DNA of 64,000 bases from Steroidobacteraceae bacterium (GCA_032127975.1 JAQBHG010000036.1:475-64474), one strand, 5' to 3'. Numbered from the stretch's first letter, positions 9,176 through 61,320 are shown. Program-made: numbers and translations. The notes: generated by a model not told the origin, from the sequence alone.

Positions 9176-9179
<4 letters not shown>

Positions 9180-10123
9180 AAGCGCTGGCCGAGGCCCCGG
9201 ACCGCGAACGCACGCTGCTGATGGCAGCGCTCGCGAGCCTCAATCAGGTCGTGCTGGGCAAGGATCGCGAGATCCGGCTCGCGATCTGCTGCCTGCTGGC
9301 CCGGGGTCACCTGCTGATCGAGGACATACCGGGGGTCGGCAAGACGACACTCGCGCACGCACTCGCGCGCGTGCTCGGGCTTTCGTTCCAGCGCATCCAG
9401 TTCACCAGCGACCTGCTGCCTGCCGATGTGATCGGCGTTTCGGTCTACGACCGCGGCAGCGGTCGATTCGTGTTCCACCGCGGCCCCGTCTTCGCACAGC
9501 TCGTGATGGCCGACGAAGTCAATCGCGCGACGCCGAAGGCCCAGAGTGCGCTGCTCGAGGCCATGGAGGAGCGCCAGGTCACGGTCGACGGCGAGACCCA
9601 CCTCTTGCCGGAGCCGTTCTTCGTCGTCGCCACGCAGAATCCGTCATTCCAGGTCGGCACGTTCCCGCTGCCCGAATCGCAGATTGACCGCTTCCTGATG
9701 CGCATCGAGCTCGGTTATCCCGCAGCCGGTCATGAGCGCCAATTGCTGCGTGGCCGCGACCGACGCGACCTGCTCGCCGACTTGCCCGCCGTGCTCGATC
9801 CCGCCGTCATCCTGTCATTGCAGCGCCGCATACCCGAGCTGCACGCAAGCGATGCGCTGCTCGACTATGTGCAGGCGCTGGCGCGCGCATCACGCGACAG
9901 TGGCCAGCATCAGGCGGGGCTGTCGCCGCGCGCGGTGATCTCGCTGTTGCGCGCCGCCCAGGCCTGGTCATTCCTGCATGGCCACGCCGGTGTGCTGCCG
10001 GATGACCTGCAGGCAGTGCTTGCCGCCGTGGTCGGGCATCGGCTTCGGCCGCGCGACGCGCAGGATGCGCGCCGTCCGCTGGAGATGGCCGCTGCACTGC
10101 TCAAATCCGTACCGATACCCTGA
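9176..10123 (+). CDS. MoxR-family AAA+ ATPase
   Basis: Walker [10 protein letters not shown], Walker [16 protein letters not shown] motif. The ATG overlaps the valS TGA (ATGA). Confidence 0.9.
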
Positions 10124-10145
10124 GCCGATGCCGCGGGCATAGCGC

Positions 10146-11117
10146 ATGCGCTTGACCGGATTCCTCAGGCAGCGGGTGCGGAACTGGATCCGGCGCCGCC
10201 AGGGTCCGGACCGCGGCCCGGTGACCTTGCGGCGTGGCCGCATCTATATCCTGCCGACCAGCCTCGGCGTCGCCTTCGGCCTGATGCTGTTCGCGATGCT
10301 ACTCGGCTCGCTCAACTACGCGAACAACCTCGGTCTCGGCCTCACATTCCTGCTCGCGTCGCTTGGCCTCGTGACGATGCAGGCCTGTCACCGCAATCTC
10401 GAGACCTTGATCGTCAGCGAGGCCGGTACTGAATCGCCATTCGCCGGCCAGGAAGCGATCTTCCAGCTGGCGTTCTCAAACCCCGGTCGTGCGGCCCGCT
10501 GCGACCTGGAGGCCGCGACGAGCGTGATGGCCGCCGACCCGGTTTCGATTGCTGCCGGCGGCGAAGCCGCCGTGAATCTTCGCGTCGCCACCAGGCGCCG
10601 CGGCTGGGTGCTGCTCGATCGCGTCGAGATCGCGACACGATTTCCCTACGGGCTGTTCCGTGCCTGGGCCGTGCTGCATCCGGACCGGCGCTGCCTGGTG
10701 TATCCGCGTCCCGCCGACACCGCGCCTCCACCGCCCCCCGCGCCCGGTGCAAGCGGTGCAGGGGCAATGCGGCGCGGTGACGACGACTTCGCCGGACTGA
10801 AAGACTATCACCCCGGCGATGCGCCGCGTCATATCGCCTGGAAGGCCTACGCAAAGGGCGGCGAACTGCTGGTCAAGGAATTCAGCGGTGCCGCGGAACC
10901 GGTGCCCATATTCGACCTGGCGCAGGTGCCTGGCCCCGATCTTGAATCGAGGTTGTCGGTGCTGGCGCGTTGGATTGTCGATGCAGAGGCGCGCGGCGAG
11001 ACATTCGGCCTGCGCCTGCCCGGTCTCGAGATTCCGCCGCAGCCCGGCCGGCAGCAGCGCCGCCGTTGCCTCGCCGCCCTCGCCGAATACCAGACCGTGG
11101 GGCCCGTCGATGCTTGA
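10146..11117 (+). CDS. DUF58 (vWA-like) protein
   Basis: Two N-terminal TM helices and the DUF58 signature DDFAGLKDYHPGDAPRHIAWKAYAK. Follows MoxR, as in known MoxR operons. Confidence 0.85.
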   Translation: MRLTGFLRQRVRNWIRRRQGPDRGPVTLRRGRIYILPTSLGVAFGLMLFAMLLGSLNYANNLGLGLTFLLASLGLVTMQACHRNLETLIVSEAGTESPFAGQEAIFQLAFSNPGRAARCDLEAATSVMAADPVSIAAGGEAAVNLRVATRRRGWVLLDRVEIATRFPYGLFRAWAVLHPDRRCLVYPRPADTAPPPPPAPGASGAGAMRRGDDDFAGLKDYHPGDAPRHIAWKAYAKGGELLVKEFSGAAEPVPIFDLAQVPGPDLESRLSVLARWIVDAEARGETFGLRLPGLEIPPQPGRQQRRRCLAALAEYQTVGPVDA

Positions 11118-13059
11118 GCCCGGCGAACAGTTCCGGCGGCTCTCCTGGACGACGGCCGGCCTGGTCGCAGCGCTCGTGCCGCATATGGCGCATCTGCGCA
11201 TCTGGGTCACCGGGTTCGTGCTCGCGGCCTGCGTCTGGCGGCTGCTTGCCGAGCGTCGCGGCTGGCGCCTGCCCGGTGTCGCGCTGCGCACGGCGATCGC
11301 ACTCGGCGCCACGGCTGGCGTGATTACAAGCTACTCGACCATCACCGGTCTTGACGGTGGCACGGCACTCCTTGCCCTGATGGCCGCGCTGAAGCTGCTC
11401 GAGACGCGCGCACCTCGCGATCACGTCGTGCTCATCTTCATTGGCTGGTTCCTGTGCCTCGCTGCCTTCCTGTATGCACAGGACATCCGGACCGTCGCTT
11501 TCGTCTTGCCGACCGTCTGGCTGCTGGCAGCGGCGCTGCTCGAGGTTGCGCGCCGGGGCCACGGTCTTGCGCCTGCCCCGTTCCGGGCGACCGGCGCGAT
11601 GCTGGTGAAGGCGCTGCCGCTCGCGTTCGTGTTGTTTCTGTTCTTCCCGCGCATCGCAGGCAGTTTCTGGGGCGCCCCTTCGAGCGAGCGAGCGCTGACC
11701 GGCCTGACCGACGAGATGTCGCCGGGTGACATCTCGGACCTGACGCTGAATGACACGGTCGCGTTTCGCGTGCGCTTCAAGGGATCGCCGCCGCCGCCCT
11801 CGGAACGTTACTGGCGCGGCCCGGTGCTGAACGAGTTCGATGGCTACACCTGGTCGCGCGGCGAAATCCAGTTTCATGACCGGCCGCTCGTGCGCTATCT
11901 GGGGCAATCCATCGACTACACGGTCACGCTCGAGCCGACCGGCCAGCGGATGCTGTTCGCACTCGACATGGTCGAGGAATGGCCGGCGGCGATGGCGCAG
12001 CGATCCTGGGACTTTCAGCTGCGCACCAGGAACCCCGTCAATTCGGTGCTGCAATACGATGCCCGCTCTTATCCGCGTTACCAGGCGGGAACGCAGAATT
12101 CGCCGGCGCTTCGCAATTCGAACCTGCAACTAGCGCCGGGCCGCAACCCGCGCTCGATCCAGCTCGCGCGCAGCATGCGCAGGGCAGCGGGCAGCGAACG
12201 CGAGTTCGCGCGGTCGGTGCTCGCCATGTTCCGCGAGCAGGACTTCTACTACACGCTGGCCCCGCCGGGTCTCGAGCGCGACTCGGTCGACGACTTCCTG
12301 TTCAACACGCGCCAGGGCTTCTGCGGGCACTTTGCATCCGCATTCACGATGATGATGCGCGCGGGCGGTGTGCCGGCCAGGGTCGTCGGCGGCTACCAGG
12401 GAGGCGACTGGAACCCGATCGGCGGTTATCTGATCCTTCGCCAGTCGCATGCGCATGCCTGGTCGGAGGTCTGGCTGCCCGATTCCGGCTGGACGCGGAT
12501 CGATCCCACGGCTGCAGTCGCCCCGGAACGCATCGAGCGCGGGCTGACGGCCGAAATTTCCGGAGACGGATTGAGAGAGGGCGGCCTGACGCGCGACGGC
12601 GGGCTCTATTGGCAGGCGGGCATGATCTGGGACAGCGTCAATGCGCATTGGAACGACTGGGTCGTGCAGTTCAACCGCTTGCAGCAGGAAGAACTGCTGC
12701 GCGAAATCGGTTTCGACGACCCGGACTGGCAGGATCTGGCGCTGGTGCTGGGTGTCGGGCTCGGCGCGGCGCTGGCACTGCTGTCCGGCTGGCTGGCCTG
12801 GGAATTCAGGCCACGGCGCCCGGATCCCGTGACCGCGAACTACCGGCGCTTCGTGCAGAGACTTGCACGCCGGGGCGTCGAGAAATCACCACACGAGGCG
12901 CCGCGCGACTTTGCGGCGCGCGTGCGTCATCTTCGTCCCGACCTGGCTCCAGCGGCATCCGCGATCACCGAGTTGTACCTGCAGCTGCGCTACCTGCCGG
13001 TCCACGGCGCGCGCGACCTTATGCTGCTGCGCGCCCTGGTCCGGCGCTTCAATCCTTGA
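11110..13059 (+). CDS. transglutaminase-like membrane protein (DUF3488/TGase core/DUF4129 architecture)
   Basis: Multi-TM N-terminus. Cys-His-Asp core: GFCGHFASAF, HAWSEVW, RIDPT. The ATG at 11110 overlaps the DUF58 end by 8 nt. Confidence 0.85.
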   Translation: MLEPGEQFRRLSWTTAGLVAALVPHMAHLRIWVTGFVLAACVWRLLAERRGWRLPGVALRTAIALGATAGVITSYSTITGLDGGTALLALMAALKLLETRAPRDHVVLIFIGWFLCLAAFLYAQDIRTVAFVLPTVWLLAAALLEVARRGHGLAPAPFRATGAMLVKALPLAFVLFLFFPRIAGSFWGAPSSERALTGLTDEMSPGDISDLTLNDTVAFRVRFKGSPPPPSERYWRGPVLNEFDGYTWSRGEIQFHDRPLVRYLGQSIDYTVTLEPTGQRMLFALDMVEEWPAAMAQRSWDFQLRTRNPVNSVLQYDARSYPRYQAGTQNSPALRNSNLQLAPGRNPRSIQLARSMRRAAGSEREFARSVLAMFREQDFYYTLAPPGLERDSVDDFLFNTRQGFCGHFASAFTMMMRAGGVPARVVGGYQGGDWNPIGGYLILRQSHAHAWSEVWLPDSGWTRIDPTAAVAPERIERGLTAEISGDGLREGGLTRDGGLYWQAGMIWDSVNAHWNDWVVQFNRLQQEELLREIGFDDPDWQDLALVLGVGLGAALALLSGWLAWEFRPRRPDPVTANYRRFVQRLARRGVEKSPHEAPRDFAARVRHLRPDLAPAASAITELYLQLRYLPVHGARDLMLLRALVRRFNP

Positions 13060-14320
13060 GCCCGCGGGCTCCAGTCTGGCTGCGCGATTTCCACAGCAGC
13101 AACGCGCCGCCCGCGAACAGCACGATGACCGAGAGGATCCCGGCGCGCGAGCTGCCGGTCGCAAGTGCGGTGATGCCCACCAGCACCGGGCCGAGCACGG
13201 CCGCGAATTTTCCCATCATGTTGTAGAAACCGAAGAACTCGCCCTGCTTGCCCGTCGGCACCAGCGAGGCAAAGTAGGAGCGCGACAGCGACTGGATTCC
13301 ACCCTGTACCAGCCCGATGAGAACGGCGAGCAGGTAGAAATCGCCGATGCTGTCCATCCAGTAGGCGGCAACCGTGCCGCCGGAATACGCAGCGATCGCG
13401 ATGAAGATTCCATTGCGGGCACCGATGCGCGCGCCCAGCCAGCCAAAGCCGAGTGCGGCGGGAAATGCCACGAACTGCGTGACCAGCAGCGCCGTGATAA
13501 GGCTTTGCTGCGGGAAGCCCAGCGACAGGCCGAAGTCCACGGCCATCTTGATGATGGTGTTGACCCCGTCGATGTACAGCCAGTAGGCCAGCAGGAACCA
13601 CACGAGCGGTCGCAACTGGCGGATTGCGCCGATGGTCGCGCGCAATTCGCTCCAGCCCGCGCGGGCCGCGGCCAGCAGCGGCAGCGGCCGCGCCGGCTTC
13701 TGCTCGCGCACCCATAGCAGGCACGGGATCGAGAACAGCAGCCACCAGCCGGCCACCAGCGGATACGACAGCCGCACCGCCTCGGCGGGACCAGCGAGCC
13801 CGAACGCGCCTGGACTCGAGACCATCGCGGCATTCAACAGCAGCATCAGCCCGCCGCCGGCATATCCCAGCGAGTAGCCGTAGGACGAAACGAGGTCGTA
13901 CTCCGGCGCTTCCGCAACGTCCACGAGCAGGGCGTCGTTAAATGTCACGCCCCCGGCAAACCCGATTCCGGCAGCTGCATACACGAGCGCAGCCGCGACC
14001 CAGTCGCCCTGCTGGACCCAGTAGAGACCGGCGGTCATTGCAGCACCCACCAGGGTGAAGAATGCGAGCATGCGCAGCCGCGCCCCGCCGCGATCGGCCA
14101 TCGCGCCGAGCAGCGGGGCCAGCAGCGCGATCAGGAAGCTGCCAATGCCATTGGCGAGACCGAGGCGAAATGTGCTGACCGTGGCCTCGACATCCACGCT
14201 CCAGTACTGCTTGAAGTATATCGGGAAGAATGCCGCCATCACGGTCGTCGCGAACGCCGAGTTGGCCCAGTCGTACAGTGCCCAGGCCACCACCGGGCGT
14301 CTTGTGAGCACGCGGCTCAC
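13049..14320 (-). CDS. MFS transporter, UMF1 family
   Basis: N-terminus [17 protein letters not shown] is typical of UMF1. About 12 hydrophobic segments. Confidence 0.8.
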
Positions 14321-15912
14321 GCAGCAGCCGCCAGGTGCTCGCGCGTCTCGCGGAATGAAACATCGGGCCAGCGCTCGACGGTCAGCTCGAGATTGATGCG
14401 GGTCGGCGCCAGATAGACCAGCAGGCCCGCGTGATCGATCGCCAGGTGCTCATGGCAGCGTTCCTGGAACAGCTTTTCCTTGCCGGGATCCTGGAAGTCG
14501 ATCCAGCGTGCGGTCGCGACATTGACCGGCTCGAATGTGCAGTTCACGCCGTATTCGTCGGCGAGCCGGAAAGCGACCACGTCGAATTGCAGCGGCCCGA
14601 TCGCGCCCAGGATCATGTCGTTGTTTCGCATCGGCCGGAACAGCTGGGTCGCGCCCTCCTCGCACAGCTGGTCGAGCCCTTTCTGCAACGCCTTCACACG
14701 CAGCGGATCCTTCAGCACGGCGCGGCGGAATATCTCGGGCGCAAAATTCGGGATGCCCGTGAATGTGAGCGGTTCGCCCTCGGTGAATGTGTCGCCGATA
14801 TTGATCGTGCCGTGGTTATGCAGGCCGATGATGTCGCCGGCCCAGGCCTCATCGGCCTGCTGCCTGTCAGCCGCCATGAAGGTCATCGCATCGCCGATGC
14901 GGACTTCCTTGCCGAGGCGCACGTGATGCAGCCGCATGCCGCGCTGGTAGCGCCCCGAGCAGATGCGCATGAAGGCGATGCGATCGCGATGGGCCGGATC
15001 CATGTTGGCCTGGATCTTGAAGACGAATCCAGTGAGCGCCGCTTCGTCGCCTTGCACCACGCGTGTCGTCGTCCGGCGCGCCCTGGGCGCAGGCGCATTC
15101 TCGACAAATGAGCCGAGCAGCTCCTCCACCCCGAAATTGCTGATCGCAGATCCGAAATGCACGGGTGTCTGCCTGCCGGCCAGGTACTCGGCGACCTCGA
15201 AGTGCGGCATTGCGCCGCGCACCAGCGCCGCCTCCTCCCGGTACGCCTGCGCGGAATCCCCGAGCAGCTCGCCCGCTTCGGCGCTCGCGAGCTCCTCGAT
15301 GGTCAGGTTCTTCCCGACGCGCCCGCTGCGCGCACCGCCATAGACATAGATCCTGTCCTGCGGGAAATGATAGATCCCGCGCAAATCGCGGCCCATTCCG
15401 ATCGGCCAGGTCACCGGCGCGCAGGTGATGCCGAGCACGCGCTCTATTTCGTCCAGGAGCTCGACCGGCGATCGCCCGTCGCGATCAAGCTTGTTGATGA
15501 ATGTCATGATCGGCGTGTCGCGCAGCCTGCAGACCTCCATCAGCTTGATCGTGCGTTCCTCGACGCCCTTGGCGCAGTCGATGACCATCAGCGCCGAATC
15601 GACCGCCGTCAGCGTTCGATAGGTGTCCTCGGAGAAATCCTCGTGCCCCGGCGTATCGAGCAGGTTGATGATGCGATCGCGGTACGGGAATTGCATGACG
15701 GACGAGGTGACCGAGATGCCGCGCTGCTGCTCCAGGCGCATCCAGTCGGATGTCGCATGCCGCGCCGCCTTGCGTCCCTTGACCGTACCGGCCATCTGGA
15801 TCGCGCCGCCGAACAGCAGCAGTTTTTCCGTCAGCGTGGTCTTGCCCGCATCCGGATGCGAGATAATCGCGAATGTGCGGCGGCGTGAAATCTCGTCGGA
15901 CAGGTCTGTCAT
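14317..15912 (-). CDS. prfC: peptide chain release factor 3
   Basis: [22 protein letters not shown] and DTPGHEDF GTPase motifs. 531 aa. Confidence 0.95.
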
Positions 15913-26307: not shown

Positions 26308-26874
26308 TCAGGTGCGCGGCAGCGTGACCCCGGTTTGCCCCTGGTATTTCCCCCCGCGGTCCCGGTACGAGGTCTCGCAGGTTTCGTCGGACTCGAAGAA
26401 CAACATCTGCGCAACACCTTCATTGGCGTAGATCCTGGCGGGGAGCGGCGTGGTGTTGGAAAACTCGAGTGTCACATGACCCTCCCACTCGGGCTCGAGC
26501 GGCGTGACATTCACGATGATTCCGCAGCGCGCGTAGGTGCTCTTGCCGAGGCAGATCACCATGGTGCTGCGCGGGATCCGGAAGTATTCGACGGTCCGTG
26601 CGAGCGCAAATGAATTCGGCGGCACGATGCAGACATCCGAACGCAGGTCAACGAAATTGTTTGTGTCAAAATTCTTCGGGTCCACGATCGTCGAATTGAT
26701 GTTCGTGAAGATCTTGAATTCACCGGCGCAGCGCACGTCATAGCCGTAACTCGAAGTGCCGTAGGAAATTATCTTGCGGTCGCCCGCGACCCGGACCTGG
26801 CCGGGCTCGAATGGCTCGATCATCCCCTGTGCCGCCATGCGCCGGATCCACCGGTCTGACTTGATGCTCATCAT
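26308..26874 (-). CDS. dcd: dCTP deaminase
   Basis: [14 protein letters not shown]-terminus. 188 aa. Confidence 0.95.
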
Positions 26875-27965
26875 TCATCCTCGATGCTGATTGCCGGCAT
26901 GGCGGTGGCGCCCTGCATGGCGCTGGCCGCCAGCCTTCCGGCCGCCCGCCTTGCGATCAAGTGAAAGATTCCCGCAGCCTGCGACGACGGATCGGCGACC
27001 ACGGTGGGCGTGCCGCCGTCCACCTGCTCGCGGATGCTTGCCTCCAGCGGCAGCTGGCCGAGCAGCGTTGTGTCGTAGCGGCGCGCAAGCTCCGCGCCGC
27101 CGCCGGCGTCGAAGATGTGCGACTCGTGCCCGCAGGCCGGGCAGCGATGCATACCCATGTTCTCGACGATGCCGAGCACCGGGACGCCGACCTTGCGAAA
27201 CATCTGCAGGCCCTTGCGCGCGTCGAGCAGCGCGATTTCCTGGGGCGTCGTCACGATCACGGCGCCGCTGACCGGGACGCGCTGGGTCAATGTCAGCTGG
27301 ATGTCGCCGGTGCCGGGTGGCATGTCGACGACCAGGTAATCGAGCGCGCCCCAGCGCGTGTCGGAGAGCATCTGCACCAGCGCCTGGGTCACCATGGGGC
27401 CGCGCCACACCATCGGCTGGTCGGAATCGATCAGGAATCCGATGGACATGACCGGGATGCCGTGGCCGCGCGGCGGATCAAAGGTCTTGCCGTCGGTCGT
27501 GGTCGGGCGCTCCCCCGCCAGGCCCATCATGCGGGGCTGGCTCGGTCCGTAGATGTCGGCGTCAAGCAGGCCGACTCGGGCGCCCTGGGCCGCGAGCGCC
27601 AGCGCGAGATTGGCCGCAACCGTCGACTTGCCGACACCGCCCTTGCCGGAGGCGACGGCTATCACATTCGCAATTTCGGGCAGCGGACGCGTGCGCTGGT
27701 CGGCGACGAACGCCGGTATCCGGGCGCGCAACTCCACCGCGAATCGTTCCTTGATGCCGGCCGCAGCCGCCCGGTCCGCAAGGGCGCTCGCAAATTCGCC
27801 CTGGTACCCCTCGACCGGAAAACCGAGCACGATTCTTGCTACCAGCCCGGCAGGCGTCATTTCAACCGATTCGAGCGCCCCGGCGGCACCGAGCGTCAGG
27901 CCGGTATTGGGCTCGACATACTGTTCGAGCGCAGCTCGCAGGCGGCTCTCGGGGCCGGAGGACAT
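26871..27965 (-). CDS. apbC: Fe-S cluster carrier ATPase ApbC/Mrp
   Basis: [16 protein letters not shown] deviant Walker A and CPACGHES. Internal ATG at 27965 chosen. Confidence 0.9.
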
Positions 27966-28088
27966 CGGGAATATTCCGCTGATCGGGGGCCGGCATTGTA
28001 GCCCAGGCGCCAATCCGTAAATGAGGCCGGGGGTGGGTATGGCATACTTTCCAATTGGCAGATTGGTCCCAACTAGAGCCAGAATCGG

Positions 28089-30488
28089 ATGGGTTTATTC
28101 AGTGCGTATCGCGCCGATCGCCTGATCGCCGAGGTGCGTGAAAGTGGCGACCCGGGCAGCCCCAAGGCGCAGCAGGCGCTCGCCAGGCTGCAGGGGCTGG
28201 GCGCCACCGCCATCAAGCCGATCGTCGAGGCGCTGTCCACGGCGGACAAGCGCGAGACAGTTGCCTTTGTCGAGGCATTGTCCGAGCTGATCGACGACAA
28301 GACATTCCCGCTGCTGGCAAAGGCGCTTGCGGAGGAAAACCCGCGCGCGGTCGCGGGCGTTGCCTGGGCGCTTTCCACGTCGCGGGCCTACTCACCTGCC
28401 CTGCTGCTCGAGCTGTTGAGCGAGCCTGGAGTCTCGCGGCCGGCCGTGCTGGACGTCATTGCCGCGCACAAGACCCGCTTCCAGCTGCGCGACCTTCTGA
28501 ATGCCGCCTACCTGCAGGATCCGAACGAAAAAGCGGCCTTGTTTCGCATCGCCGGACAGATCGTGGATGAGACCTCGGTCGACGAACTGGTCGCCAGGGT
28601 CGAGGGCAAGGATTCGATCGCCCGCATGCATATCATCGCGCTGCTCGCGCGGTTCAATACACCCAAGGTCCGTGCGGCCCTGATGTCGACGCTAAAGGAC
28701 CCGAACAAGCTGGTGCGTTCGGCCGCACTGCAGGCGATCGCCGCCATGGAGGGGCCCGTTGACCCGGCCCAGGTCGCCCCGCTGCTGCGCGATACCGATC
28801 TCGATGTCCAGAACAAGGCAGTCGACCTGCTGTGCCGCAGTAAGCACCCGGATACTGCGAAACACCTGGTCGAGGCGCTGAAGGACGAGTCGGAGTACAC
28901 GCGCCGGGCGGCGGTCGAAGTGCTGAATGTCGTCGGCAACGACAACTCTGTGAGGCACCTGCTGCAGGCCATCAAGGACGCCGACTGGTGGGTGCGCAGC
29001 CGCGCCGCAGATGCGCTCGGCAAGATCGGCGGCCCGCAGGTCATCAATGCGGCGATCGCGCTGGTCTCCGACCGCGATGAGGAAGTCCGCCGCACGGCGG
29101 TCGAGATCCTCAACCAGACCAAGGACGAGCGCGCGGTCAGCCACCTGCTCGAGGCGACCAAGGACTCCGATTGGTGGGTCAGCGAAAGGGCGGTCGACGC
29201 ACTGGGGGCGATCGGCAGCCGCAAGTCCGTGGCCCGGCTCCTTCAGATGATGGAGTCGAACCCGAAATCTGTCCCCACGATTGTGCGTGCGCTCGGCAAG
29301 ATCGGGGACAATGCCGCGACCGACAGCGTCATGCGGTCCCTTGACCGACCGGAAACCGACATCCGCGTCGAGGCCCTGGCCGCACTCGTTCGCCTCGCCG
29401 ATGACCGCACCGTCGACCCTGTTCGCGCCCGCATTGCGCCGCTGATGTCGGTGACGGAGCAGACGGTGGCCGGCGCCGCGCTGCGTGCATTGACCGAGCT
29501 GGAAGCGAAATTCGGCGGCACGACCCTGGCGGGGAAACCGGCACCAGGAGCCAGCCTGGCGGCCCGTCCGGGGGCGGATGTCGCGCGCACCTTGCTGATG
29601 GAGTCGGCAGACGTCTCGGCGATCATGAAAGCAGCCGAAGCCCAGGGCCGGCTCGATATCGCGACCCTGCAGCCAGGCGACGTGCTGGAAGGCCGCTACA
29701 AGTACGTGGAACGCATCGGCAAGGGCGCATTCGGCACGGTGCTGCTGATGGAGGACACCGTCGTCGACGAGAACCTGATACTCAAGTTCCTGAATCCGGC
29801 GATTTCGCAGGACGAAGAGATGATGCAACGCTTCGTCCACGAGCTTCGTTACAGCCGCAAGATCACCCATCCGAACGTGATCCGTATTTACGACTTCCTC
29901 CACATCCAGGGAAATTACGCGATCTCGATGGAGTACTTTCCGTCGCACACGCTGGGCGGCGAGGTCGCCGACGGCAAGCCTGTGGCGCTGCGCCGGGCGC
30001 TGAAATTCGGAATGGACATCGCCAAGGGGATGTCCGTCGCCCACGGCGTCGGCATCGTGCACCGCGACCTCAAGCCGGCCAACGTACTGATCAATGACGA
30101 AGGCCTGCTGAAAATCGTCGATTTCGGCGTCGCGGCAGCGCAGCACCAGGGCGATACGCAGCTGACCAAGACCGGCTACGTGATCGGTTCGCCGAAGTAC
30201 ATGGCGCCGGAACAGATCCTCGGCAAGAAAGTCGACGAGCGCGCTGATATCTATTCGCTCGGGGTGATGATCTACGAGATGATGACCGGCGCACCGCCGT
30301 ATCATCGCGGCGACCACATGTCGGTGATGTACCAGCACGTCCAGGGCCGGGCCCGCCCGCCGATTGAGCTGAATCCGGCGCTGCCACCGGCCCTGTCGGA
30401 GTTCATCATGAAGACCATGTCCGTCGACAAGGAAAAGCGACCAGCCTCGATGGATGAAATGCATGTGGCGCTGGAACGCTTCTTGTGA
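28089..30488 (+). CDS. HEAT-repeat protein fused to a C-terminal Hanks-type Ser/Thr protein kinase
   Basis: Residues ~167-445 form nine tandem 31-residue HEAT/PBS-lyase-type repeats (for example KDADWWVRSRAADALGKIGG). Residues ~535-795 carry GKGAFGTV, the LILKF Lys, HRDLKPANV, DFG and APE. No TM segment. Confidence 0.85.
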   Translation: MGLFSAYRADRLIAEVRESGDPGSPKAQQALARLQGLGATAIKPIVEALSTADKRETVAFVEALSELIDDKTFPLLAKALAEENPRAVAGVAWALSTSRAYSPALLLELLSEPGVSRPAVLDVIAAHKTRFQLRDLLNAAYLQDPNEKAALFRIAGQIVDETSVDELVARVEGKDSIARMHIIALLARFNTPKVRAALMSTLKDPNKLVRSAALQAIAAMEGPVDPAQVAPLLRDTDLDVQNKAVDLLCRSKHPDTAKHLVEALKDESEYTRRAAVEVLNVVGNDNSVRHLLQAIKDADWWVRSRAADALGKIGGPQVINAAIALVSDRDEEVRRTAVEILNQTKDERAVSHLLEATKDSDWWVSERAVDALGAIGSRKSVARLLQMMESNPKSVPTIVRALGKIGDNAATDSVMRSLDRPETDIRVEALAALVRLADDRTVDPVRARIAPLMSVTEQTVAGAALRALTELEAKFGGTTLAGKPAPGASLAARPGADVARTLLMESADVSAIMKAAEAQGRLDIATLQPGDVLEGRYKYVERIGKGAFGTVLLMEDTVVDENLILKFLNPAISQDEEMMQRFVHELRYSRKITHPNVIRIYDFLHIQGNYAISMEYFPSHTLGGEVADGKPVALRRALKFGMDIAKGMSVAHGVGIVHRDLKPANVLINDEGLLKIVDFGVAAAQHQGDTQLTKTGYVIGSPKYMAPEQILGKKVDERADIYSLGVMIYEMMTGAPPYHRGDHMSVMYQHVQGRARPPIELNPALPPALSEFIMKTMSVDKEKRPASMDEMHVALERFL

Positions 30489-30503
30489 TCCACTCGCGCG
30501 CTA

Positions 30504-31595
30504 ATGCCGCGCATTGATGCATTCCTGAAGCTTGGCACGACCCAGGCATGCTCCGACGTCCATCTGGCCGTCGGGGTTCCTCCGATGCTCCGGCTGAATG
30601 GCGAGCTGACAGCCATCCGCTTCCGGGACCTCGCCGAAGCCGAACTCGAGAGCTATGTCACCGAAATCCTTTCCCGCAACCTCAGCGAGCGGTTTCGCGC
30701 CGGGCACGATGTCGATTTTTCCTACGTGTCGGAGGAAGGCGCGCGCTTCCGGGTCAATGTGTTCCGCAAGGACTCCGGCGTCGGGGCGGTATTCCGGTCG
30801 ATCCCGAACGAAATTCCGACGCTCGACTCGCTGCAGCTGCCACCGATCGTCAGGAAGCTCTGCGATTTTCACCAGGGCATGATCCTGGTTACGGGCTCGA
30901 CCGGCACGGGCAAGTCGACCACGCTCGCGGCGATGATCGATTTGTTGAACACCACGCGGAATCTCAACATCATCAGCCTGGAGGATCCGATCGAGTTCGT
31001 GCATCGCAGCAAGAAGTGCCAGGTTGTGCAACGCGAGCTCGGCACGCACCTGCCCTCATTCGCAGAAGGCGTGCGTGCCGCGATGCGCGAGGATCCCGAC
31101 GTGATCCTGGTTGGTGAAATGCGCGACGCCGAGACCATTTCGATGGCCATGACCGCGGCGGAAACGGGCCACCTCGTGCTCGGCACGCTGCATACGACCA
31201 GCGCCGTCAAGACCATCGACCGGATGATCGACGCGCTGCCGGCCGACCAGCGTGAACAGACCAAGAGCTTTCTCGGGCAGAGCCTGCTCGCCGTGATCAC
31301 GCAGGTGCTGGTCCGCAAGCCGGAGAATCGGGGGCGCAGGGCAATCTGCGAGGTCATGATCATGAATCGCGCGATCGCCAAGCTCATCCAGACCGACCAG
31401 ACGCACCAGATTCCGGCACAGGTGCAGACCGGCCGGGACCTCGGCATGCAGCTGATGGACCAGTCGCTGCTTACAGCGATCCAGGCCAAGGAGATCGATC
31501 CAGACGATGCCTTCGCCTATTCGAATGACAAGCGCCTGTTTGCGAAACACGTCGTGGACCGCAGCCTGCTGCCACGCATCGAAACCCTGGAATGA
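30504..31595 (+). CDS. PilT-family secretion ATPase, divergent paralogue 1
   Basis: Walker A GSTGTGKST, EDPIEF, Walker B DVILVGEMRD, His box GTLHTTSA. The AIRNLIRE position reads AIAKLIQT. Sits 15 nt after the kinase. Confidence 0.85.
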   Translation: MPRIDAFLKLGTTQACSDVHLAVGVPPMLRLNGELTAIRFRDLAEAELESYVTEILSRNLSERFRAGHDVDFSYVSEEGARFRVNVFRKDSGVGAVFRSIPNEIPTLDSLQLPPIVRKLCDFHQGMILVTGSTGTGKSTTLAAMIDLLNTTRNLNIISLEDPIEFVHRSKKCQVVQRELGTHLPSFAEGVRAAMREDPDVILVGEMRDAETISMAMTAAETGHLVLGTLHTTSAVKTIDRMIDALPADQREQTKSFLGQSLLAVITQVLVRKPENRGRRAICEVMIMNRAIAKLIQTDQTHQIPAQVQTGRDLGMQLMDQSLLTAIQAKEIDPDDAFAYSNDKRLFAKHVVDRSLLPRIETLE

Positions 31596-31607
31596 GGCTG
31601 CCTTAGC

Positions 31608-32669
31608 GTGGCGCGCGTCGACGAATACCTCGAGGAGATCCTCAAACGGGACGGCTCCGACCTGCATTTCATGGCGGGCGATCCGCCGCGCATCCGGCAA
31701 TACGGGAAGCTGTCCAATTTGAGGGCCGAAGCGCTTGCGGCCGATTTCGTGCGCGAGTCGCTCTACGAAATCATGCCGCGCAAGGCGCTCGAACGATTCG
31801 AGTCCCGCGATGGCACGGATTTCGCGTATTCCCTCGGCACGATTGCGCGGTTTCGCGTCAACATCCTGCGCCAGCTGAATGGCATGGGCGGTGTGTTCCG
31901 CGCCATACCGTCCAAGGCGCAGACCCTCGAGCAGCTCAAGATGCCAGAAGCCGTGCGCAATCTCTGCAAGGCTTCGAGCGGCCTGATCCTGATGACCGGC
32001 AAGACGGGTTCCGGCAAGTCGACGACGCTCGCGGCGATGATCGACGACCTCAACCTGCGCCTGAAGGGTCACATACTGACGATTGAGGACCCGATCGAGT
32101 TCGTGCATCCCCGCAAGAACTGCCTGATCAGCCAGCGTGAGGTCGGCGTCCACGCCGAATCCTTTGCGACCGCGCTGCTGTCGGCATTGCGCGAAGACCC
32201 TGACGTCATCCTGGTCGGCGAGTTGCGCGACCTCGAGACGATCAGCACCGCGATCACCGCGTCCGAGATGGGCATCCTGGTGATGGCGACCCTGCACACG
32301 AATGGTGCGGCGGCAACCGTCGACCGCATGGTCAACGCGTTTCCGTCCGACAAGCAGGCCCATGTGCGGACGATGTTGTCGACCTCCCTGCGCGGCGTCG
32401 TGTCGCAGCAATTGATTTCGCGCAAGGGCCCGCCGGGCCGCGTCGCTGCGATCGAAGTGCTGATAAACACGGCCGCGGTCTCCAACCTGATCCGCCAGGG
32501 CAAGATTGACCAGGTGGAAACCGCGATGCAGGCCGGCACCTCGCACGGCATGCGTACTATGGACGTCGCCATCCAGCAGCTGCTGGATTCCGGACAGATC
32601 AGTGGCCGATCGGCCTACGAGAAGGCCATGAACAAGGCCAAGTTCGAGGAGCTCAAGGAATTCGACTGA
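31608..32669 (+). CDS. PilT-family secretion ATPase, divergent paralogue 2
   Basis: GTG start. Walker A GKTGSGKST, EDPIEF, DVILVGELRD, ATLHTNGA. The AIRNLIRE position reads AVSNLIRQ. Sits 12 nt after paralogue 1. Confidence 0.85.
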   Translation: MARVDEYLEEILKRDGSDLHFMAGDPPRIRQYGKLSNLRAEALAADFVRESLYEIMPRKALERFESRDGTDFAYSLGTIARFRVNILRQLNGMGGVFRAIPSKAQTLEQLKMPEAVRNLCKASSGLILMTGKTGSGKSTTLAAMIDDLNLRLKGHILTIEDPIEFVHPRKNCLISQREVGVHAESFATALLSALREDPDVILVGELRDLETISTAITASEMGILVMATLHTNGAAATVDRMVNAFPSDKQAHVRTMLSTSLRGVVSQQLISRKGPPGRVAAIEVLINTAAVSNLIRQGKIDQVETAMQAGTSHGMRTMDVAIQQLLDSGQISGRSAYEKAMNKAKFEELKEFD

Positions 32670-32714
32670 CCGCGCCCTGAGGCATAATGCATGACTCATC
32701 CCCGGACCCGAGTC

Positions 32715-34685
32715 ATGACCCGCCGAATCCTCGTCACCAGTGCGCTGCCCTACGCCAACGGGCCCACCCACCTCGGACTCATGACCGAGGTCGTGCAGAC
32801 CGACATCTGGGTCCGCTGCATGAAAATGGGCGGGCACGACTGCCTGTACGTGTGCGCCGACGACACGCACGGCACGCCGATCATGCTGCAGGCCGAATCC
32901 AAAGGGATCACGCCGGAGCAGTTGATCGCAGATGTCGGCGCCGAGCGGCGCCGCGATTTCGCCGATTTCGGCATCGACTTCGACAACTATTACACCACCC
33001 ATTCGGAAGAAAACCGCCGGCTGACGGTGCGCATGTACCAGGCGCTCGCCGCCGCCGGCCACATCACGCGGCGCGTCGTCCGCCAGGCCTATGACGAAAA
33101 CGCGGGAATGTTCCTGCCTGACCGCTATGTCAAGGGCACTTGCCCGCGCTGCCAGACGCCGGACCAGTACGGCGACAGCTGTGAGAACTGCGGGGCGACC
33201 TACGCCCCGTCCGACCTGATCAACCCTGTTTCCGTCGTGTCCGGGACGACCCCGGTCCAACGCGAATCGGAGCACATCTTCTTCAAGCTCGGTGATTTCG
33301 AGGCGATGCTTCGCAAGTGGACGCGCTCCGGCAGCCTGCAGTCGGCAGTCGCCAACAAGCTCGACGAGTGGTTCGATGCGGGCCTTCGGGACTGGGACGT
33401 GTCGCGCGACGCTCCTTACTTCGGCATCGAGATTCCCGATGCGCCGGGCAAGTACTTCTATGTCTGGCTCGATGCACCGGTCGGATACATGGCGAGCTTC
33501 GAGAATCTCTGCGCGCGCAGCGGCCTCGTATTCGACGACTACTGGGGCCCGGACAGCCGGGCGGAACTCTATCATTTCATCGGCAAGGACATCCTTTACT
33601 TCCACGCACTATTCTGGCCGGCAACGCTGGAGGGCGCCGGATTCCGCAAGCCCACTGTCGTGCATGCGCACGGCTTCCTGACGATCAACGGCGAAAAGAT
33701 GTCGAAATCTCGCGGAACTTTCGTCACCGCGAGACGGTATCTCGACCACCTGCCGCCGGAGTATTTCCGCTACTTCCTGGCGGCAAAGCTGGGCCCCGGG
33801 CTCGACGACATCGACATGAACCTGGACGAGTTCGCGACCCGCATCAACGCCGAGCTGGTCGGGAAGTTCGTCAATATCGCAAGCCGCTGCGCCGGGTTCA
33901 TCCATCGCAGCCACGGCGGCCGTCTTGCCCAGGCCCTGCCCGACCCCGGCCTTTATCGCGAATTCGTCGAGGCCGCAGACTGGATCGCCGCCAGCTACGA
34001 ATCGCGCGAATACGCGGCGGCCGTGCGTGAAGTCATGGCGCTCACCGACCGCGCCAATCTCTACATCGACCAGCACAAGCCGTGGCTCGCCGCAAAGGAT
34101 CCCTCCCGCGCTGCTGAAGTCCAGGCGATCTGCACCCAGGGACTCAACCTGTTCCGCGTGCTGATGACCTGCCTCAAACCGGTGATGCCGGCCATGGCGG
34201 AACGCGCCGAGGAATTCCTCGGCAGGCCGGTGCAGCTCTGGAGCGACATCGCCGAGCCCCTGCTCGGCACGAAGATCAAGGAATACCAGCCACTTGCAAC
34301 CCGTGTCGATCCGGCGCTGGTTCGTAAGCTGGTGGAGACACCGATGACCACGATTCCGGAAATAACTGCGGAAGAATTTGCGCGAATCGACCTGCGGATC
34401 GCCCGCATCGAATCAGCGACGCTGGTCGAGGGCGCGGACCGGCTGCTGCAACTGACCGTCGATCTTGGCAGCGGGCAGCGCACGGTATTCGCCGGTATAC
34501 GCAGTTCCTACGAGCCCGCCCAACTGGTCGGCCGGCATGTGGTCGTGGTCGCGAACCTCAAGCCGCGCAAGCTGCGTTTCGGCGTCTCACAGGCGATGAT
34601 CCTGGCAGCGAGCGCCGAAGGCGCCGATGCGCTCTACCTGCTGGGACCGGACACGGGCGCGACGGCGGGCATGAAGGTCAGCTAG
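32715..34685 (+). CDS. metG: methionine--tRNA ligase
   Basis: MTRRILVTSALPYANGPTHLG matches the usual MetG N-terminus (an upstream ATG at 32691 is also possible). KMSKSRG motif and C-terminal tRNA-binding domain. Confidence 0.95.
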   Translation: MTRRILVTSALPYANGPTHLGLMTEVVQTDIWVRCMKMGGHDCLYVCADDTHGTPIMLQAESKGITPEQLIADVGAERRRDFADFGIDFDNYYTTHSEENRRLTVRMYQALAAAGHITRRVVRQAYDENAGMFLPDRYVKGTCPRCQTPDQYGDSCENCGATYAPSDLINPVSVVSGTTPVQRESEHIFFKLGDFEAMLRKWTRSGSLQSAVANKLDEWFDAGLRDWDVSRDAPYFGIEIPDAPGKYFYVWLDAPVGYMASFENLCARSGLVFDDYWGPDSRAELYHFIGKDILYFHALFWPATLEGAGFRKPTVVHAHGFLTINGEKMSKSRGTFVTARRYLDHLPPEYFRYFLAAKLGPGLDDIDMNLDEFATRINAELVGKFVNIASRCAGFIHRSHGGRLAQALPDPGLYREFVEAADWIAASYESREYAAAVREVMALTDRANLYIDQHKPWLAAKDPSRAAEVQAICTQGLNLFRVLMTCLKPVMPAMAERAEEFLGRPVQLWSDIAEPLLGTKIKEYQPLATRVDPALVRKLVETPMTTIPEITAEEFARIDLRIARIESATLVEGADRLLQLTVDLGSGQRTVFAGIRSSYEPAQLVGRHVVVVANLKPRKLRFGVSQAMILAASAEGADALYLLGPDTGATAGMKVS

Positions 34686-46071: not shown

Positions 46072-48474
46072 ATGAGCGACCGCGCGAACACGGACGCAGC
46101 ACGCGTTTATCGCTTCGCCGGCTGCCTGCTGGATATCGGGCGGCGCTCGCTGCATCGCGATCGGCTGTCGATCGAACTGCAGCCCAAGGCATTCGATCTG
46201 CTCGCCTACCTGGTCGAGCATCGCGATCGCGCAGTCGACAAGGACGAGTTGCAGGCCGCCATCTGGCCCAACGTCATCGTGACCGAAGCATCGCTGACGA
46301 AGGCAGTGCAACGGGCGCGTCTTGCCGTCGGCGACGACTCCGATCGTCAGTCGGTCATCCGAACGGTTCACGGCCATGGGTATCGGTTCGTCGCCGAGTT
46401 GGCGGAACCCGAGCTGCTGCCCGAGCCTGCTGCCGTGCATGCCGCAACGCAGCAACCGCTGACGGACACAACGACGGCACCAAGGAATACACTTTGGCGC
46501 TGGCCTGTCTGGATTGCCGTCGCAGCTCTGACGCTGGTGATCGGTTACGGGTCATTCCGCTTTGGCGTGCAGACCGCGGTCCCCAGCCCGGCCCGAATCG
46601 CGGTGCTCCCGATCGAGAACGGAACCGGCGATAGCGAGCTCGACTGGACGCGGCTCGGGCTCATGAGCGTGATGGCCGAAAGTCTGCGCAAGTCGAGCTT
46701 GCGTGTCGTCGACGACGGCAATGTCGCGCGACTCGCCAGCGTGCAGGCAAGCGGGGGCGAGGCGCTCGGCGCTGACTGGCTGCGCCAGACTCTTCGTCAG
46801 GCTCACGGCGCCACCCACCTGCTGTCCGCGCGCCTCGAGCGCGACGGGAACGTCTACCGGATTCGCGTGTCCGTGAGCGGCGTAGACCGCGGGCACGACG
46901 ATGCACTGTTCACGGGCCAGAACCTGCTGCAACTCGCTCGCGACGCGGCTGAGCGCATTGCATTGAAAGTCCAGAACGCACAGCCTTCGCCGCGCGCCGC
47001 CGGCGCCATATCCGACGACCCGTACGTCAATGAATCCTACGCTCGCGGCCGCGCACTCGAACTGGAAGGACGCTGCGCTGACGCACAGGCTCTTTTCGCC
47101 GCGGCGATAATCCAGCAGCCGCAACTGCTCGAACCCAAGATTGCCTACGCATCCTGCGCACGAATTCTCGGTCAAGCCGAGGAGGCGGAGCGGGTGTTGC
47201 GCGAAGTGCTCCAGGACATCGGCAAGCGAGATCCGGCAGCGCCTGCGACTCGCAACCTGAAGGCAACGGCGCTGCTGCGGCTAGGCATCGTACTGAATCG
47301 CACCGGCCGACTGGAGGAATCGGACCGCACCTACGCAGAAGCGGAAACACTTGCGCGCGAGCTGGCGGACCCGGATCTGGTGGGCCTAATCCTAGTCAAT
47401 CGCGCCTTCATTGCCGAGGACCGCAGCCAGTTCGTCCTGGCGCGCGAGCACCTGTTGCGCGCACTGAGCTATTTTCAGGAGGCCAGGCGATCGATCATTC
47501 CCGGGAATCTGTACGCGGCACTGGCGAATATCGCCATCGACGAAGGCCAGCTCGAGGACGCCGATCGCAATTATGCACGGGCGATAGAGACTTTTCGGCA
47601 GGTCGGCGACCGGCGCAACGAAGCGATGATGCTTAACAACCAGGGCCTGCTGAAGCGCGAGCAGGGGCAGCTTGGCGACGCCGAGGCGCTGCACAAGGCG
47701 TCACGCGAGATTCGCGAGCAATTGGGCGACCGGCAGGGCCTCGGACGAGTCGATGACATGCTCGGCATGGTCCACCTGGCGCGCGGCGAATTCGATGCGG
47801 CATTGCCGCGATTCGAAAGCGCGCTCGCGATTGCGCGCGAGGGCCGCGACCGGTTTTTCGAGGCGGTGACGCTCGGAGATCGTGGCGACCTTTACCTCGC
47901 GAGCGGGAAGCTGGACGCGGCGCAACGCGACCTGACGGCGGCAGTCGACATTTTCTCAGAGCTCGGCAATCGTTCGTATTACCTGCAGCTGTCGGCCAGG
48001 CTGGCCGATATCGAACGTCAACGCGGCAGATTCGACGCGGCCGAGCGCGCCGCCGGAGTGATCCTGGCGGCAGCCAGGAACGAGAAGCTGGATATCGTCG
48101 AGATTGAGGCGTTGAACCTGTCGGCGCGAATTGCCGCAGATCGCGGCGACCGGGCCATGCGTATCAAGCGCTTGCGTGAGGCGCTCGAGCGGGCGCGTGC
48201 CGTGGGACATCAGGGCGAGACGATGACCGCCTCGATCGACCTGGCGCAAGCGTATCTCGACACGAACGAAATCTTCGCGGCGGAGCCCCTGATGGGGACC
48301 CTGGTTGACGCGCCGGAGTCCTACGATCTGATGCGCCTGCGCGCCGCGTGGGCGTTCGCGCGCCAGGACGCAATCGGCGCCACCCAAGCCATGCGACGCG
48401 CGCAAGCCCTCGCGGGGCAGCGCTGGTCAAGGGCCGACGCCGCCCTGCTTGAGCGCTACCACAGCGGTGCCTGA
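46072..48474 (+). CDS. CadC/OmpR-type winged-helix DNA-binding domain, single TM helix, large TPR-repeat domain
   Basis: N-terminal LQPKAFDLLAYLVEHRDRAVDKDELQAAIWP...VHGHGYRF, a TM helix WRWPVWIAVAALTLVIGYGSF, then many TPR-like repeats. Confidence 0.8.
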   Translation: MSDRANTDAARVYRFAGCLLDIGRRSLHRDRLSIELQPKAFDLLAYLVEHRDRAVDKDELQAAIWPNVIVTEASLTKAVQRARLAVGDDSDRQSVIRTVHGHGYRFVAELAEPELLPEPAAVHAATQQPLTDTTTAPRNTLWRWPVWIAVAALTLVIGYGSFRFGVQTAVPSPARIAVLPIENGTGDSELDWTRLGLMSVMAESLRKSSLRVVDDGNVARLASVQASGGEALGADWLRQTLRQAHGATHLLSARLERDGNVYRIRVSVSGVDRGHDDALFTGQNLLQLARDAAERIALKVQNAQPSPRAAGAISDDPYVNESYARGRALELEGRCADAQALFAAAIIQQPQLLEPKIAYASCARILGQAEEAERVLREVLQDIGKRDPAAPATRNLKATALLRLGIVLNRTGRLEESDRTYAEAETLARELADPDLVGLILVNRAFIAEDRSQFVLAREHLLRALSYFQEARRSIIPGNLYAALANIAIDEGQLEDADRNYARAIETFRQVGDRRNEAMMLNNQGLLKREQGQLGDAEALHKASREIREQLGDRQGLGRVDDMLGMVHLARGEFDAALPRFESALAIAREGRDRFFEAVTLGDRGDLYLASGKLDAAQRDLTAAVDIFSELGNRSYYLQLSARLADIERQRGRFDAAERAAGVILAAARNEKLDIVEIEALNLSARIAADRGDRAMRIKRLREALERARAVGHQGETMTASIDLAQAYLDTNEIFAAEPLMGTLVDAPESYDLMRLRAAWAFARQDAIGATQAMRRAQALAGQRWSRADAALLERYHSGA

Positions 48475-59727: not shown

Positions 59728-59803
59728 TGGTGCCGGTGGAGGGAATCGAACCCCCGACCTCTCGCTTACGAAGCGACTGCTCTACCAGCTGAGCTACACC
59801 GGC
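59728..59803 (-). tRNA. tRNA-Thr (anticodon CGU)
   Basis: The 76-nt sequence folds by hand into a cloverleaf: 7-bp acceptor stem, GTTCGATTC T-loop, anticodon loop TTCGTAA, encoded CCA. Confidence 0.9.
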
Positions 59804-60871: not shown

Positions 60872-61320
60872 CCGAGCGACCGGCACGGGGATTCACGCTG
60901 CCCGAGGCGCTCGTTGCGATCGCCGTCATGGTGGCGGGCCTCGCGGGCTCGACCGCAATGCTTCTGCAAGCGGTCAGGCAGGAACGCGAATCTGCCAATC
61001 GCCGCGCGGCAATCCGGATTGCCGCGTCCATCGCGGACCAGTTGCGCGCGATTCGCAGGCCGGACGAACTCCCGGTCCTGGCGATCGCAGGCACCGATCC
61101 GGACGCAGCCTGCGCCGGCCACCCCGTCAGTTGCGCGCCGGAGCGAGCCGCAGAACGACTGCGCATCACCTGGGCGGCGGAAGCCGTGCTGACCTTGCCC
61201 CAAGGCTCTACGGTCACCGTAAGCGTTCCGGATCCCCGGGTGTCCGCATACCTGATTTCGGTCCGCTGGCCAGCGGCCATTGGCGGATCCGAGCGGTTCC
61301 AGCTTCCGGTAACCACGTGA
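60865..61320 (+). CDS. pilV: type IV pilus minor pilin PilV
   Basis: Leader RG/FTLPEALVAIAV. Position in the operon. Confidence 0.65.
   Translation: MLTERPARGFTLPEALVAIAVMVAGLAGSTAMLLQAVRQERESANRRAAIRIAASIADQLRAIRRPDELPVLAIAGTDPDAACAGHPVSCAPERAAERLRITWAAEAVLTLPQGSTVTVSVPDPRVSAYLISVRWPAAIGGSERFQLPVTT

Follow-up and report, generated by a model that had tools for sequence, protein, structure and literature searches.

Introduction

The closest described relatives of the locus analysed here are the PilT-PilU pairs of Pseudomonas aeruginosa, Vibrio cholerae and Neisseria, in which two adjacent, co-directional genes encode hexameric ATPases of the PilT family (PMC6762196). Two genes of this kind likewise stand side by side in a 64,000-nucleotide stretch of DNA from a Steroidobacteraceae bacterium (GCA_032127975.1, JAQBHG010000036.1:475-64474; hereafter 'the window'), where they follow the gene of a Hanks-type kinase with HEAT repeats and form with it a three-gene module, the triad, at positions 28089-32669. 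We refer to the two enzymes as ATPases A and B, and to the triad as it recurs in other genomes as the cassette. The likeness to PilT-PilU has its limits: A and B are each other's sisters, a HEAT-kinase gene always precedes them, B lacks the first His-box histidine that both PilT and PilU keep, and the triad of the window lies in an apbC/metG context, whereas the canonical loci lie in a yggS/proC context. The change in B, which would be expected to weaken its autonomous activity, does recall the dependence of PilU on PilT.

Extra PilT-like ATPases encoded away from pil clusters, as A and B are, have been described before. The orphan paralogues PilT1-3 of Geobacter (PMC5065972) and PilT2 of Neisseria (PMC10790696) have unclear or auxiliary roles, and Myxococcus xanthus has further paralogues with 58-66% identity to PilT, MXAN_0415 and the neighbouring MXAN_6705/6706, of which MXAN_6706 causes a partial defect in S-motility when deleted (PMC13584747). 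MXAN_6705/6706 are a tandem pair, like A and B, but the M. xanthus paralogues are closer to PilT than A and B are, and no kinase partner has been reported for any of these orphan proteins. The roles of many extra bacterial PilT paralogues remain an open question, and so does the link between machines for motility or secretion and eukaryotic-like Ser/Thr kinases.

Two signalling systems serve as points of comparison. The threonine-phosphorylation pathway of the type VI secretion system (T6SS) consists of the kinase PpkA, the PP2C phosphatase PppA and Fha1; PpkA is membrane-anchored and has a periplasmic domain, and the ATPase of the secretion system is ClpV. In Xanthomonas, control by cyclic di-GMP (c-di-GMP) involves the HD-GYP protein RpfG, GGDEF proteins and a PilZ adaptor that binds PilT and PilU, as well as FimX-PilZ-PilB. 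In the open-access literature we found no paper on the combination of a HEAT-kinase with two PilT-like ATPases. All parts of the triad belong to known families; what is new is the two PilT subfamilies and the conserved kinase-motor operon.

Results

The triad is conserved as a neighbourhood across distant bacteria

The three genes of the triad are all read from the plus strand: ORF1 (28089-30488; HEAT-kinase, 799 amino acids), ORF2 (30504-31595; ATPase A, 363 amino acids) and ORF3 (31608-32669; ATPase B, 353 amino acids, GTG start). They are separated by 15 and 12 nt, in agreement with an earlier reading made from this DNA alone (the sequence-only reading), which had also proposed that the three genes form one functional unit of a composition not described before.

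We followed up the check suggested there, co-occurrence across taxa, and found the kinase-A-B order in every locus with enough DNA, whether Steroidobacteraceae-like, from other Gammaproteobacteria or on contigs with labels of other phyla. In the contigs of eleven ORF1-family members, each that is long enough carries the kinase gene, then a first and then a second T2SSE-family gene. Two of them (L001 and L011; kinase identity 73% and 55%) have the triad at the same apbC/metG site, and in two others (L010 and L012; kinases ~45% identical) it lies between thiL-pgpA and gltX. The order is also kept in L093, L094 (labelled Candidatus Eisenbacteria), L098 and L095 (labelled Candidatus Methylomirabilis), and in L013, whose contig stops inside B; the contigs of L096 (labelled Tectomicrobia) and L097 end after the start of A. 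Taxon labels of loci derived from metagenome-assembled genomes (MAGs) are to be read with care. The assembly behind L097 (protein P0419; 44.6% GC), for example, is labelled Kaarinaea lacus (Nostocales cyanobacterium) and the sequence may come from the cyanobacterium or from a co-cultured bacterium. ORF2 shares 63-86% identity with the ATPases in first position and ORF3 57-81% with those in second position, whereas cross-comparisons give 39-50%.

As a reverse test, metagenomes were scanned with peptides found only in A, M[PA]R[IL]D[AS]FL[KQ] and GM[QH][LM]MDQ[AS], and the best 80 of at least 563 matches were taken as loci. Counting those with enough flanking DNA, a kinase domain lies directly upstream of A in 66/66 and the HEAT part in 52/52, and directly downstream there is a B-type ATPase in 64/64, in each of which B-type queries outscore A-type ones. 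Some 37 of these loci carry the cassette at the apbC/metG site and 4 at the thiL-pgpA/gltX site; the other 39 have it at a different place or on a contig of insufficient length to identify the site.

The genes are tightly packed, with intergenic gaps of -4 to 81 nt in nine annotated loci, in three of which the stop codon of one gene overlaps the start codon of the next. Between loci, the identities of the kinase, of A and of B are correlated (r 0.91-0.97), the A and B subtrees are largely congruent, and the apbC/metG site is retained across relatives whose kinases are only 54-73% identical; the carrier DNA ranges from 45% to 69% GC and comes from at least three differently labelled phyla. At the level of sequence comparison, these data show that the three genes have been inherited together across distant bacteria and at different chromosomal sites. 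Since the triad is conserved as a neighbourhood, the proposal that kinase, A and B form one functional unit is well supported, and we hold it to be very probable. The proposal also agrees with the placement of the ATPases outside the canonical clades (see below).

Two loci seen in the course of this comparison deserve mention in their own right. In the syntenic locus L002 (ENA contig_86358), dcd is fused with apbC and ATPase A is split in the gene calls, fragmentation that is typical of long-read indel errors and not of real pseudogenes. In an Acidobacteriota MAG (L033:7995-18749), a PilT-family gene (13845-15128) with an N-terminal extension of ~100 amino acids stands among three Hanks kinases with PD40, TPR or WD40 domains; kinase and PilT may have become associated independently here, or their proximity may be due to chance in a genome with many kinases.

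ATPases A and B lie outside the PilT and PilU clades

Both ATPases pass the curated cut-off of TIGR01420 (PilT/PilU family type 4a pilus ATPase; 319.1 bits), ORF2 with 419.5 and ORF3 with 428.4 bits, and they are 43% identical to each other. The best solved relative of both is P. aeruginosa PilT (3jvu; E = 4.9e-93 for ORF2 and 5.8e-96 for ORF3), with PilU scoring lower. In public databases both are annotated as 'twitching motility protein PilT' or 'PilT/PilU family type 4a pilus ATPase', an annotation that masks their distinction from PilT.

The sequence-only reading had described ORF2 and ORF3 as PilT-fold ATPases with intact Walker A and B motifs, Asp box and His box. For ORF2 this description stands in full: it has the Walker A motif GSTGTGKST, the Asp box, the Walker B glutamate and both His-box histidines, as well as the N-terminus MPRIDAFLKLG that is a signature of the subfamily. 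For ORF3 the fold assignment likewise stands, and the Walker A lysine, Asp box, Walker B glutamate and second histidine are kept, but its His box reads EMGILVMATLHT, with the first histidine (H222 of P. aeruginosa PilT, PaPilT; retained in ORF2 as H223) replaced by Ile223 (codon 32274-32276).

This replacement runs through the whole B family. The position is I or V in 9/9 B-position proteins of the annotated loci, and 63/64 from the metagenome loci lack the histidine (58 I, 4 V, 1 L), which makes 72/73 overall; it is kept in 80/80 metagenome A-position proteins and in every PilT, PilU and GspE compared. The sole exception, the gene downstream of A in L160 (1/64), has a PilT-like His box, ETGHLVFGTLHT, although B-type queries outscore A-type ones on it too; it may be a reversion or a recombinant. 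ORF3 further has Asn at the position of PaPilT D242, a substitution (D242N) that is 99% conserved in B. In PaPilT itself, H222A reduces twitching and retraction speed and does not abolish function (PMC10187167). The family-wide loss of the histidine in B provides a handle for biochemistry.

Other motifs also set the pair apart. The motif AIRNLIRE, present near the C-terminus in the PilTs of Xanthomonas, Legionella, Acinetobacter and P. aeruginosa (AVRNLIRE in Neisseria), corresponds to AIAKLIQT in ORF2 and AVSNLIRQ in ORF3, and the PilU hallmarks LHANNANQA and APDV[IM]xIGE[VI]R[ST]RE are absent from both.

A neighbour-joining tree was built from 34 sequences and 345 columns with 200 bootstraps and GspE as the outgroup; the references were PilT and PilU from Xanthomonas, Acinetobacter, Legionella and Neisseria loci, together with the solved PilTs of P. 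aeruginosa, Geobacter and Aquifex, PilU 9n32 and entry 10my. The A clade received 100%, the B clade 73.5% and A+B 94.5% bootstrap support, and both ATPases fall outside the clades of canonical proteobacterial PilTs (supported at 100%) and of PilU (96%). Identity to PilT is 41-49% for A and 44-52% for B, compared with 65-84% among canonical proteobacterial PilTs, and identity to PilU is 29-41% for both. We therefore rejected A or B as a canonical PilT orthologue (outside the PilT clade, under ~65% identity, no AIRNLIRE) and as PilU (outside the PilU clade, 29-41% identity, no hallmark motifs). The tree and the identities show A and B, as far as such comparisons reach, to be ancient sister paralogues in the PilT-like, non-PilU part of the family. 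Judged by sequence they are two new PilT subfamilies, a distinct one (A) and its sister (B) within the PilT clade in the wide sense.

These results bear directly on the alternative that the locus is an ordinary pilT-pilU pair beside an unrelated kinase gene. The public annotation as PilT and the side-by-side layout of two PilT-family genes, which is the usual one, are what such a locus would have. Neither gene, however, groups with PilT or PilU, the identity to PilU is only 29-41%, and the PilU hallmarks and the yggS/proC context of the canonical reference loci are both absent. A kinase was moreover found in 66/66 loci that had been picked regardless of any kinase, in distant taxa and at different sites. 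We consider this explanation exceedingly improbable.

ORF1 combines a HEAT solenoid with a Hanks-type kinase

The sequence-only reading had seen in ORF1 a HEAT-repeat array followed by a kinase with every catalytic motif, and both Pfam and the translation agree. HEAT_2 matches in seven stretches (E = 5.8e-67, 222.4 bits), with HEAT_PBS at 47.3 and HEAT at 62 bits, and the tandem helical-hairpin repeats are those of the HEAT/PBS-lyase type. ORF1 as a phycobiliprotein lyase was rejected, with scores far under the equivalog cut-offs. Pkinase matches residues 537-789 (E = 2.3e-50, 171.9 bits against a cut-off of 31.7), and the glycine-rich loop, VAIK lysine, alpha-C glutamate, HRD, DFG and APE motifs of Hanks-type kinases are all present.

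In the AlphaFold2 model (mean predicted local distance difference test score, pLDDT, 85), residues 1-475 (28089-29513) form an all-alpha, HEAT/PBS-type solenoid of ~30 helices, with pLDDT ~85-95. A flexible linker follows (residues 478-506, 29520-29606), with pLDDT below 50 and unconserved columns in both family alignments, and then the kinase domain (residues ~530-799, 29676-30488), whose activation loop (682-698) is modelled with low confidence. The model contains no membrane segment. A fold search with the whole model returned kinase domains only and no match for the HEAT part; the kinase domain superposes on those of PknB/Stk1 with a target-normalised template modelling (TM) score of ~0.9 at 30-32% identity.

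ORF1 thus shares with PknB/Stk1 the kinase fold and the full set of catalytic motifs, but differs in having neither a transmembrane helix nor PASTA domains, its sensor or scaffold part being an N-terminal, cytoplasmic HEAT solenoid. As a PASTA kinase of the PknB/Stk1 type (NF033483) it was rejected: it scores 268.9 bits, from the kinase domain only, against a cut-off of 450.

The ORF1 family consists of proteins of ~790-830 amino acids that can be aligned from end to end and fall into dozens of 50%-identity clusters, with identities down to 26%. In an alignment of 40 homologues that extends to that limit, K566, E585, H658-R659-D660, K662, N665, D678-F679-G680 and P707-E708 are invariant; the kinase motifs are retained in 61-65 of 65 metagenome homologues, and the HEAT repeat motifs DxDWWVRxRAADAL and DESExxRRAAVEVLN are kept across the family. 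The alignments show the catalytic residues to be under strong conservation, which suggests that the ORF1 kinase is catalytically active.

The triad interrupts the apbC/metG junction and matches its host

By its named homologues, the source organism belongs to Steroidobacteraceae, Gammaproteobacteria. The triad is flanked on one side by dcd and apbC/mrp on the minus strand (apbC at 26871-28013; Pfam ParA/NUBPL, E = 2e-101), outside the module, and on the other by metG (32691-34685; tRNA-synt_1g, E = 2.5e-148), an RnfB-like ferredoxin gene and nth on the plus strand. In Escherichia coli K-12, mrp and metG are divergent immediate neighbours, and we take the same to hold for pseudomonads. The block therefore interrupts a conserved junction, as had been proposed.

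Between apbC and ORF1 lies a divergent intergenic region of 75 nt (28014-28088), which presumably holds the promoter of the operon; a promoter scan matched no sigma-70 consensus there, a result that is uninformative on the promoter. From the stop codon of ORF3 to the start of metG there are 21 nt, or 45 nt should translation begin at the second Met (32669-32715), and a terminator scan found no plus-strand terminator-like site within the block or before metG. Transcription reading through from the module into the essential metG is plausible, and the Steroidobacteraceae triad is probably expressed jointly with metG or just before it.

GC content at third codon positions (GC3) is 0.82-0.84 in the triad genes and 0.80-0.84 in the flanking genes. 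Together with the retention of the site across relatives, this agrees with the earlier view that the triad is not a recent arrival. A repeat search gave no mobile-element border repeats flanking the triad, only repeats due to the paralogy of ORF2 and ORF3, and there is no integrase or tRNA target at the site.

The same observations speak to the idea that the triad is anti-phage defence or mobile-element cargo, with an ATPase effector triggered by the kinase. The kinase domain does match the PADLOC models PD-T4-6, mad6 and PglW (E = 1e-28 to 1e-79), and the cassette occurs at several different chromosomal sites. The PADLOC matches are, however, confined to the generic kinase domain, and the ATPases match only mad8, weakly and via the P-loop (E ~1e-5). 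The flanks are housekeeping genes, GC3 equals that of the host, boundary repeats, integrase and tRNA target are all missing, and one site is kept across relatives with kinases 54-73% identical, the identities fitting mostly vertical descent. This explanation is very unlikely in our view. Membership in PD-T4-6, MADS or BREX (PglW) was rejected as there is no full-length match and the neighbours are housekeeping genes.

Signalling genes recur beside the cassette in other genomes

The Steroidobacteraceae version is a minimal, bare triad without added partners. Elsewhere the cassette often sits in fuller operons. FHA domains, which bind phospho-threonine, and PP2C enzymes, which remove it, are prominent among the added genes: the gene immediately before the triad encodes a small FHA protein in L093, L094 and L098. 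In one clade (L094 and L098) the triad is followed directly by a gene for an HD_5+PP2C fusion, and in L093 HD_5 genes occur in the vicinity. An FHA-adenylate/guanylate cyclase gene follows the triad in L010 and L012, and an FHA-EAL gene and a gene for a 153-amino-acid protein precede it in L095. FHA-cyclase, FHA-EAL and FHA-GAF-HD proteins are spread over L010, L012, L095, L096 and L109. The FHA domain thus appears in at least four arrangements (a small protein upstream, one or two proteins downstream, fused to a cyclase, fused to EAL or GAF-HD), and an FHA protein is encoded downstream in 14/50 metagenome loci. The fullest operon seen, L109:1401-10777, comprises, in this order, a divergent FHA-GAF-HD/HD_5 gene, a gene for a 177-amino-acid protein, the HEAT-kinase, A, B and two FHA proteins.

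A further companion is a protein of ~155 amino acids (L012:4546-5019, L095:7481-7942, L096:5459-5986, L097:7464-7946), which is 46-59% identical across distant taxa, begins with PKxxKQVTLWVHPEGRVVG and has a weak match to DUF6812. In many relatives, 18/50 metagenome loci among them, its gene immediately precedes that of the kinase; it was not found in the window.

With a Hanks kinase, an FHA reader and a PP2C eraser beside a hexameric-ATPase machine, the fuller operons resemble the T6SS threonine-phosphorylation pathway, and the Joint Genome Institute (JGI) name of the cassette's small FHA protein is 'predicted component of type VI protein secretion system'. In contrast to that pathway, the cassette kinase is soluble with an N-terminal HEAT solenoid and the ATPases have the PilT fold; no T6SS families were among the Pfam matches of the genes in the cassette loci looked up. 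The pathway may be regarded as the closest likeness for the signalling logic, and as an analogy only.

The recurrence of HD-GYP-like (HD_5), EAL and cyclase genes beside the cassette also recalls c-di-GMP control in Xanthomonas, and suggests a second-messenger input to PilT-family motors. Unlike in Xanthomonas, there is no PilZ gene near the cassette (~916 kb flanking 91 cassette loci), no such nucleotide-enzyme gene adjoins the triad of the window, and the link would run via FHA/phospho-threonine modules fused to nucleotide enzymes. The sole match of a partner search in the window is the EAL domain of an unrelated PAS-GGDEF-EAL protein. This 910-amino-acid protein (49181-51913, minus strand) is the only c-di-GMP enzyme of the window.

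Discussion

The reading we prefer, with about even confidence, is that in the operon of which the triad is the constant core, phospho-signalling would control paired A/B motors acting on type IVa pili. In such a scheme the HEAT-kinase would autophosphorylate or phosphorylate partners on threonine, FHA proteins, some of them making or breaking cyclic nucleotides, would read the phospho-threonine mark, and PP2C would reset it; the output would lie in controlling how active the A/B motors are, how they assemble or where they are placed. A threonine-phosphorylation switch is the simplest reading because FHA binds, and PP2C removes, phospho-threonine. The HEAT solenoid could serve as a docking platform. 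A and B might work as a primary and an accessory motor, in the manner of PilT and PilU, and make up a signal-gated retraction motor of the type IVa pilus machine. By analogy with PilT/PilU, and given the phenotype of H222A in PaPilT, B may be the slower or A-dependent partner of A.

The link to pili comes from the ATPases and from the organism. Both proteins pass the PilT/PilU model, and the characterised proteins nearest to them are retraction motors. The organism has pilus genes, as the window contains, ~28 kb from the triad, a type IVa minor-pilin operon of FimU-PilV-PilW-PilX-PilY1-like composition (60377-64000, plus strand). It encodes a FimT/FimU-like prepilin (60377-60871), a PilV-like prepilin (60865-61320), PilW (~61320-62270; PF16074, E = 7.5e-13), a PilX-like protein (62267-62701) and a PilY1-like vWA protein that starts at ~62730 and runs off the end of the window.

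Several points weigh against the pilus reading or narrow its basis. In the cassette flanks defined above there is no match to PilC, PilD or the minor pilins of the window, which is weak negative evidence; the pilus link thus rests on family membership and one pilin operon. Missing linkage to pil genes says little, because canonical pilT-pilU is unlinked too: the Xanthomonas, Acinetobacter and Legionella loci have no other pil gene within ~4 kb. PilT's AIRNLIRE motif is degenerate in ORF2, the tree that separates A and B from PilT is distance-based and samples few PilTs from outside the Proteobacteria, and the sample of the best 80 metagenome matches left A-like genes with divergent N-termini unsampled. 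The FHA, PP2C and HD partners were not found in the window; such readers for its triad, if any, would lie outside it. Targeting of A and B by the kinase and their binding by the HEAT solenoid are proposals.

Some of these points would be expected if the triad were one unit with a non-pilus job, A and B having been recruited to another substrate or machine, with the HEAT-kinase as scaffold and regulator. They could, for example, drive a secretion system or a different type IV filament, translocate DNA or protein, or serve as a signalling switch that depends on nucleotides and is coupled to c-di-GMP or cyclic nucleoside monophosphates (cNMP). The absence of PilC, PilD and minor-pilin matches from the flanks fits such a role, as does the nature of the recurrent neighbours, which are signalling enzymes (HD_5/HD-GYP-like, EAL, Guanylate_cyc, GAF, PP2C, FHA) and not pilus parts. 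The position of A and B outside the canonical PilT and PilU clades and the degenerate AIRNLIRE of ORF2 point the same way, and such roles have been proposed for orphan PilT paralogues, for example Geobacter PilT1, encoded in the recA operon (PMC5065972). Yet A and B score well over the PilT/PilU cut-off, and the solved structures that match them best are those of genuine retraction ATPases; canonical pilT-pilU is equally without pil neighbours within ~4 kb, the organism has type IVa pilus genes, and no alternative machine is encoded beside the cassette either. We regard a non-pilus job as possible, if unlikely. A particular version, in which the HEAT-kinase would assemble and gate a heteromeric or stacked ring of catalytic A and a His-box-variant, regulatory B in a hitherto unrecognised, pilus-independent machine present in several phyla, with phospho-threonine/FHA/PP2C and cyclic-nucleotide signals feeding in, is doubtful when taken as a whole.

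Under either outcome, the cassette offers a concrete regulatory module of kinase, FHA readers, PP2C eraser and motor pair. With type IV pili as the target of A and B, the module would amount to signal-gated retraction, as in the reading we prefer; with any other target, the PilT fold would have been put to a new use.

Other features of the window

A tRNA-Thr(CGU) gene (59728-59803, minus strand) adjoins a fur-family gene (59855-60295, minus strand) just upstream of the minor-pilin operon, and is the sole Rfam/tRNA match in the window. An 800-amino-acid regulator with an OmpR-type winged helix and TPR repeats is encoded at 46072-48474 (plus strand). At 9176-13059 (plus strand), genes for a MoxR AAA ATPase, an unassigned 323-amino-acid ORF and a TgpA-type transglutaminase (TgpA_N, Transglut_core, DUF4129) follow one another, a trio that is common and poorly understood.

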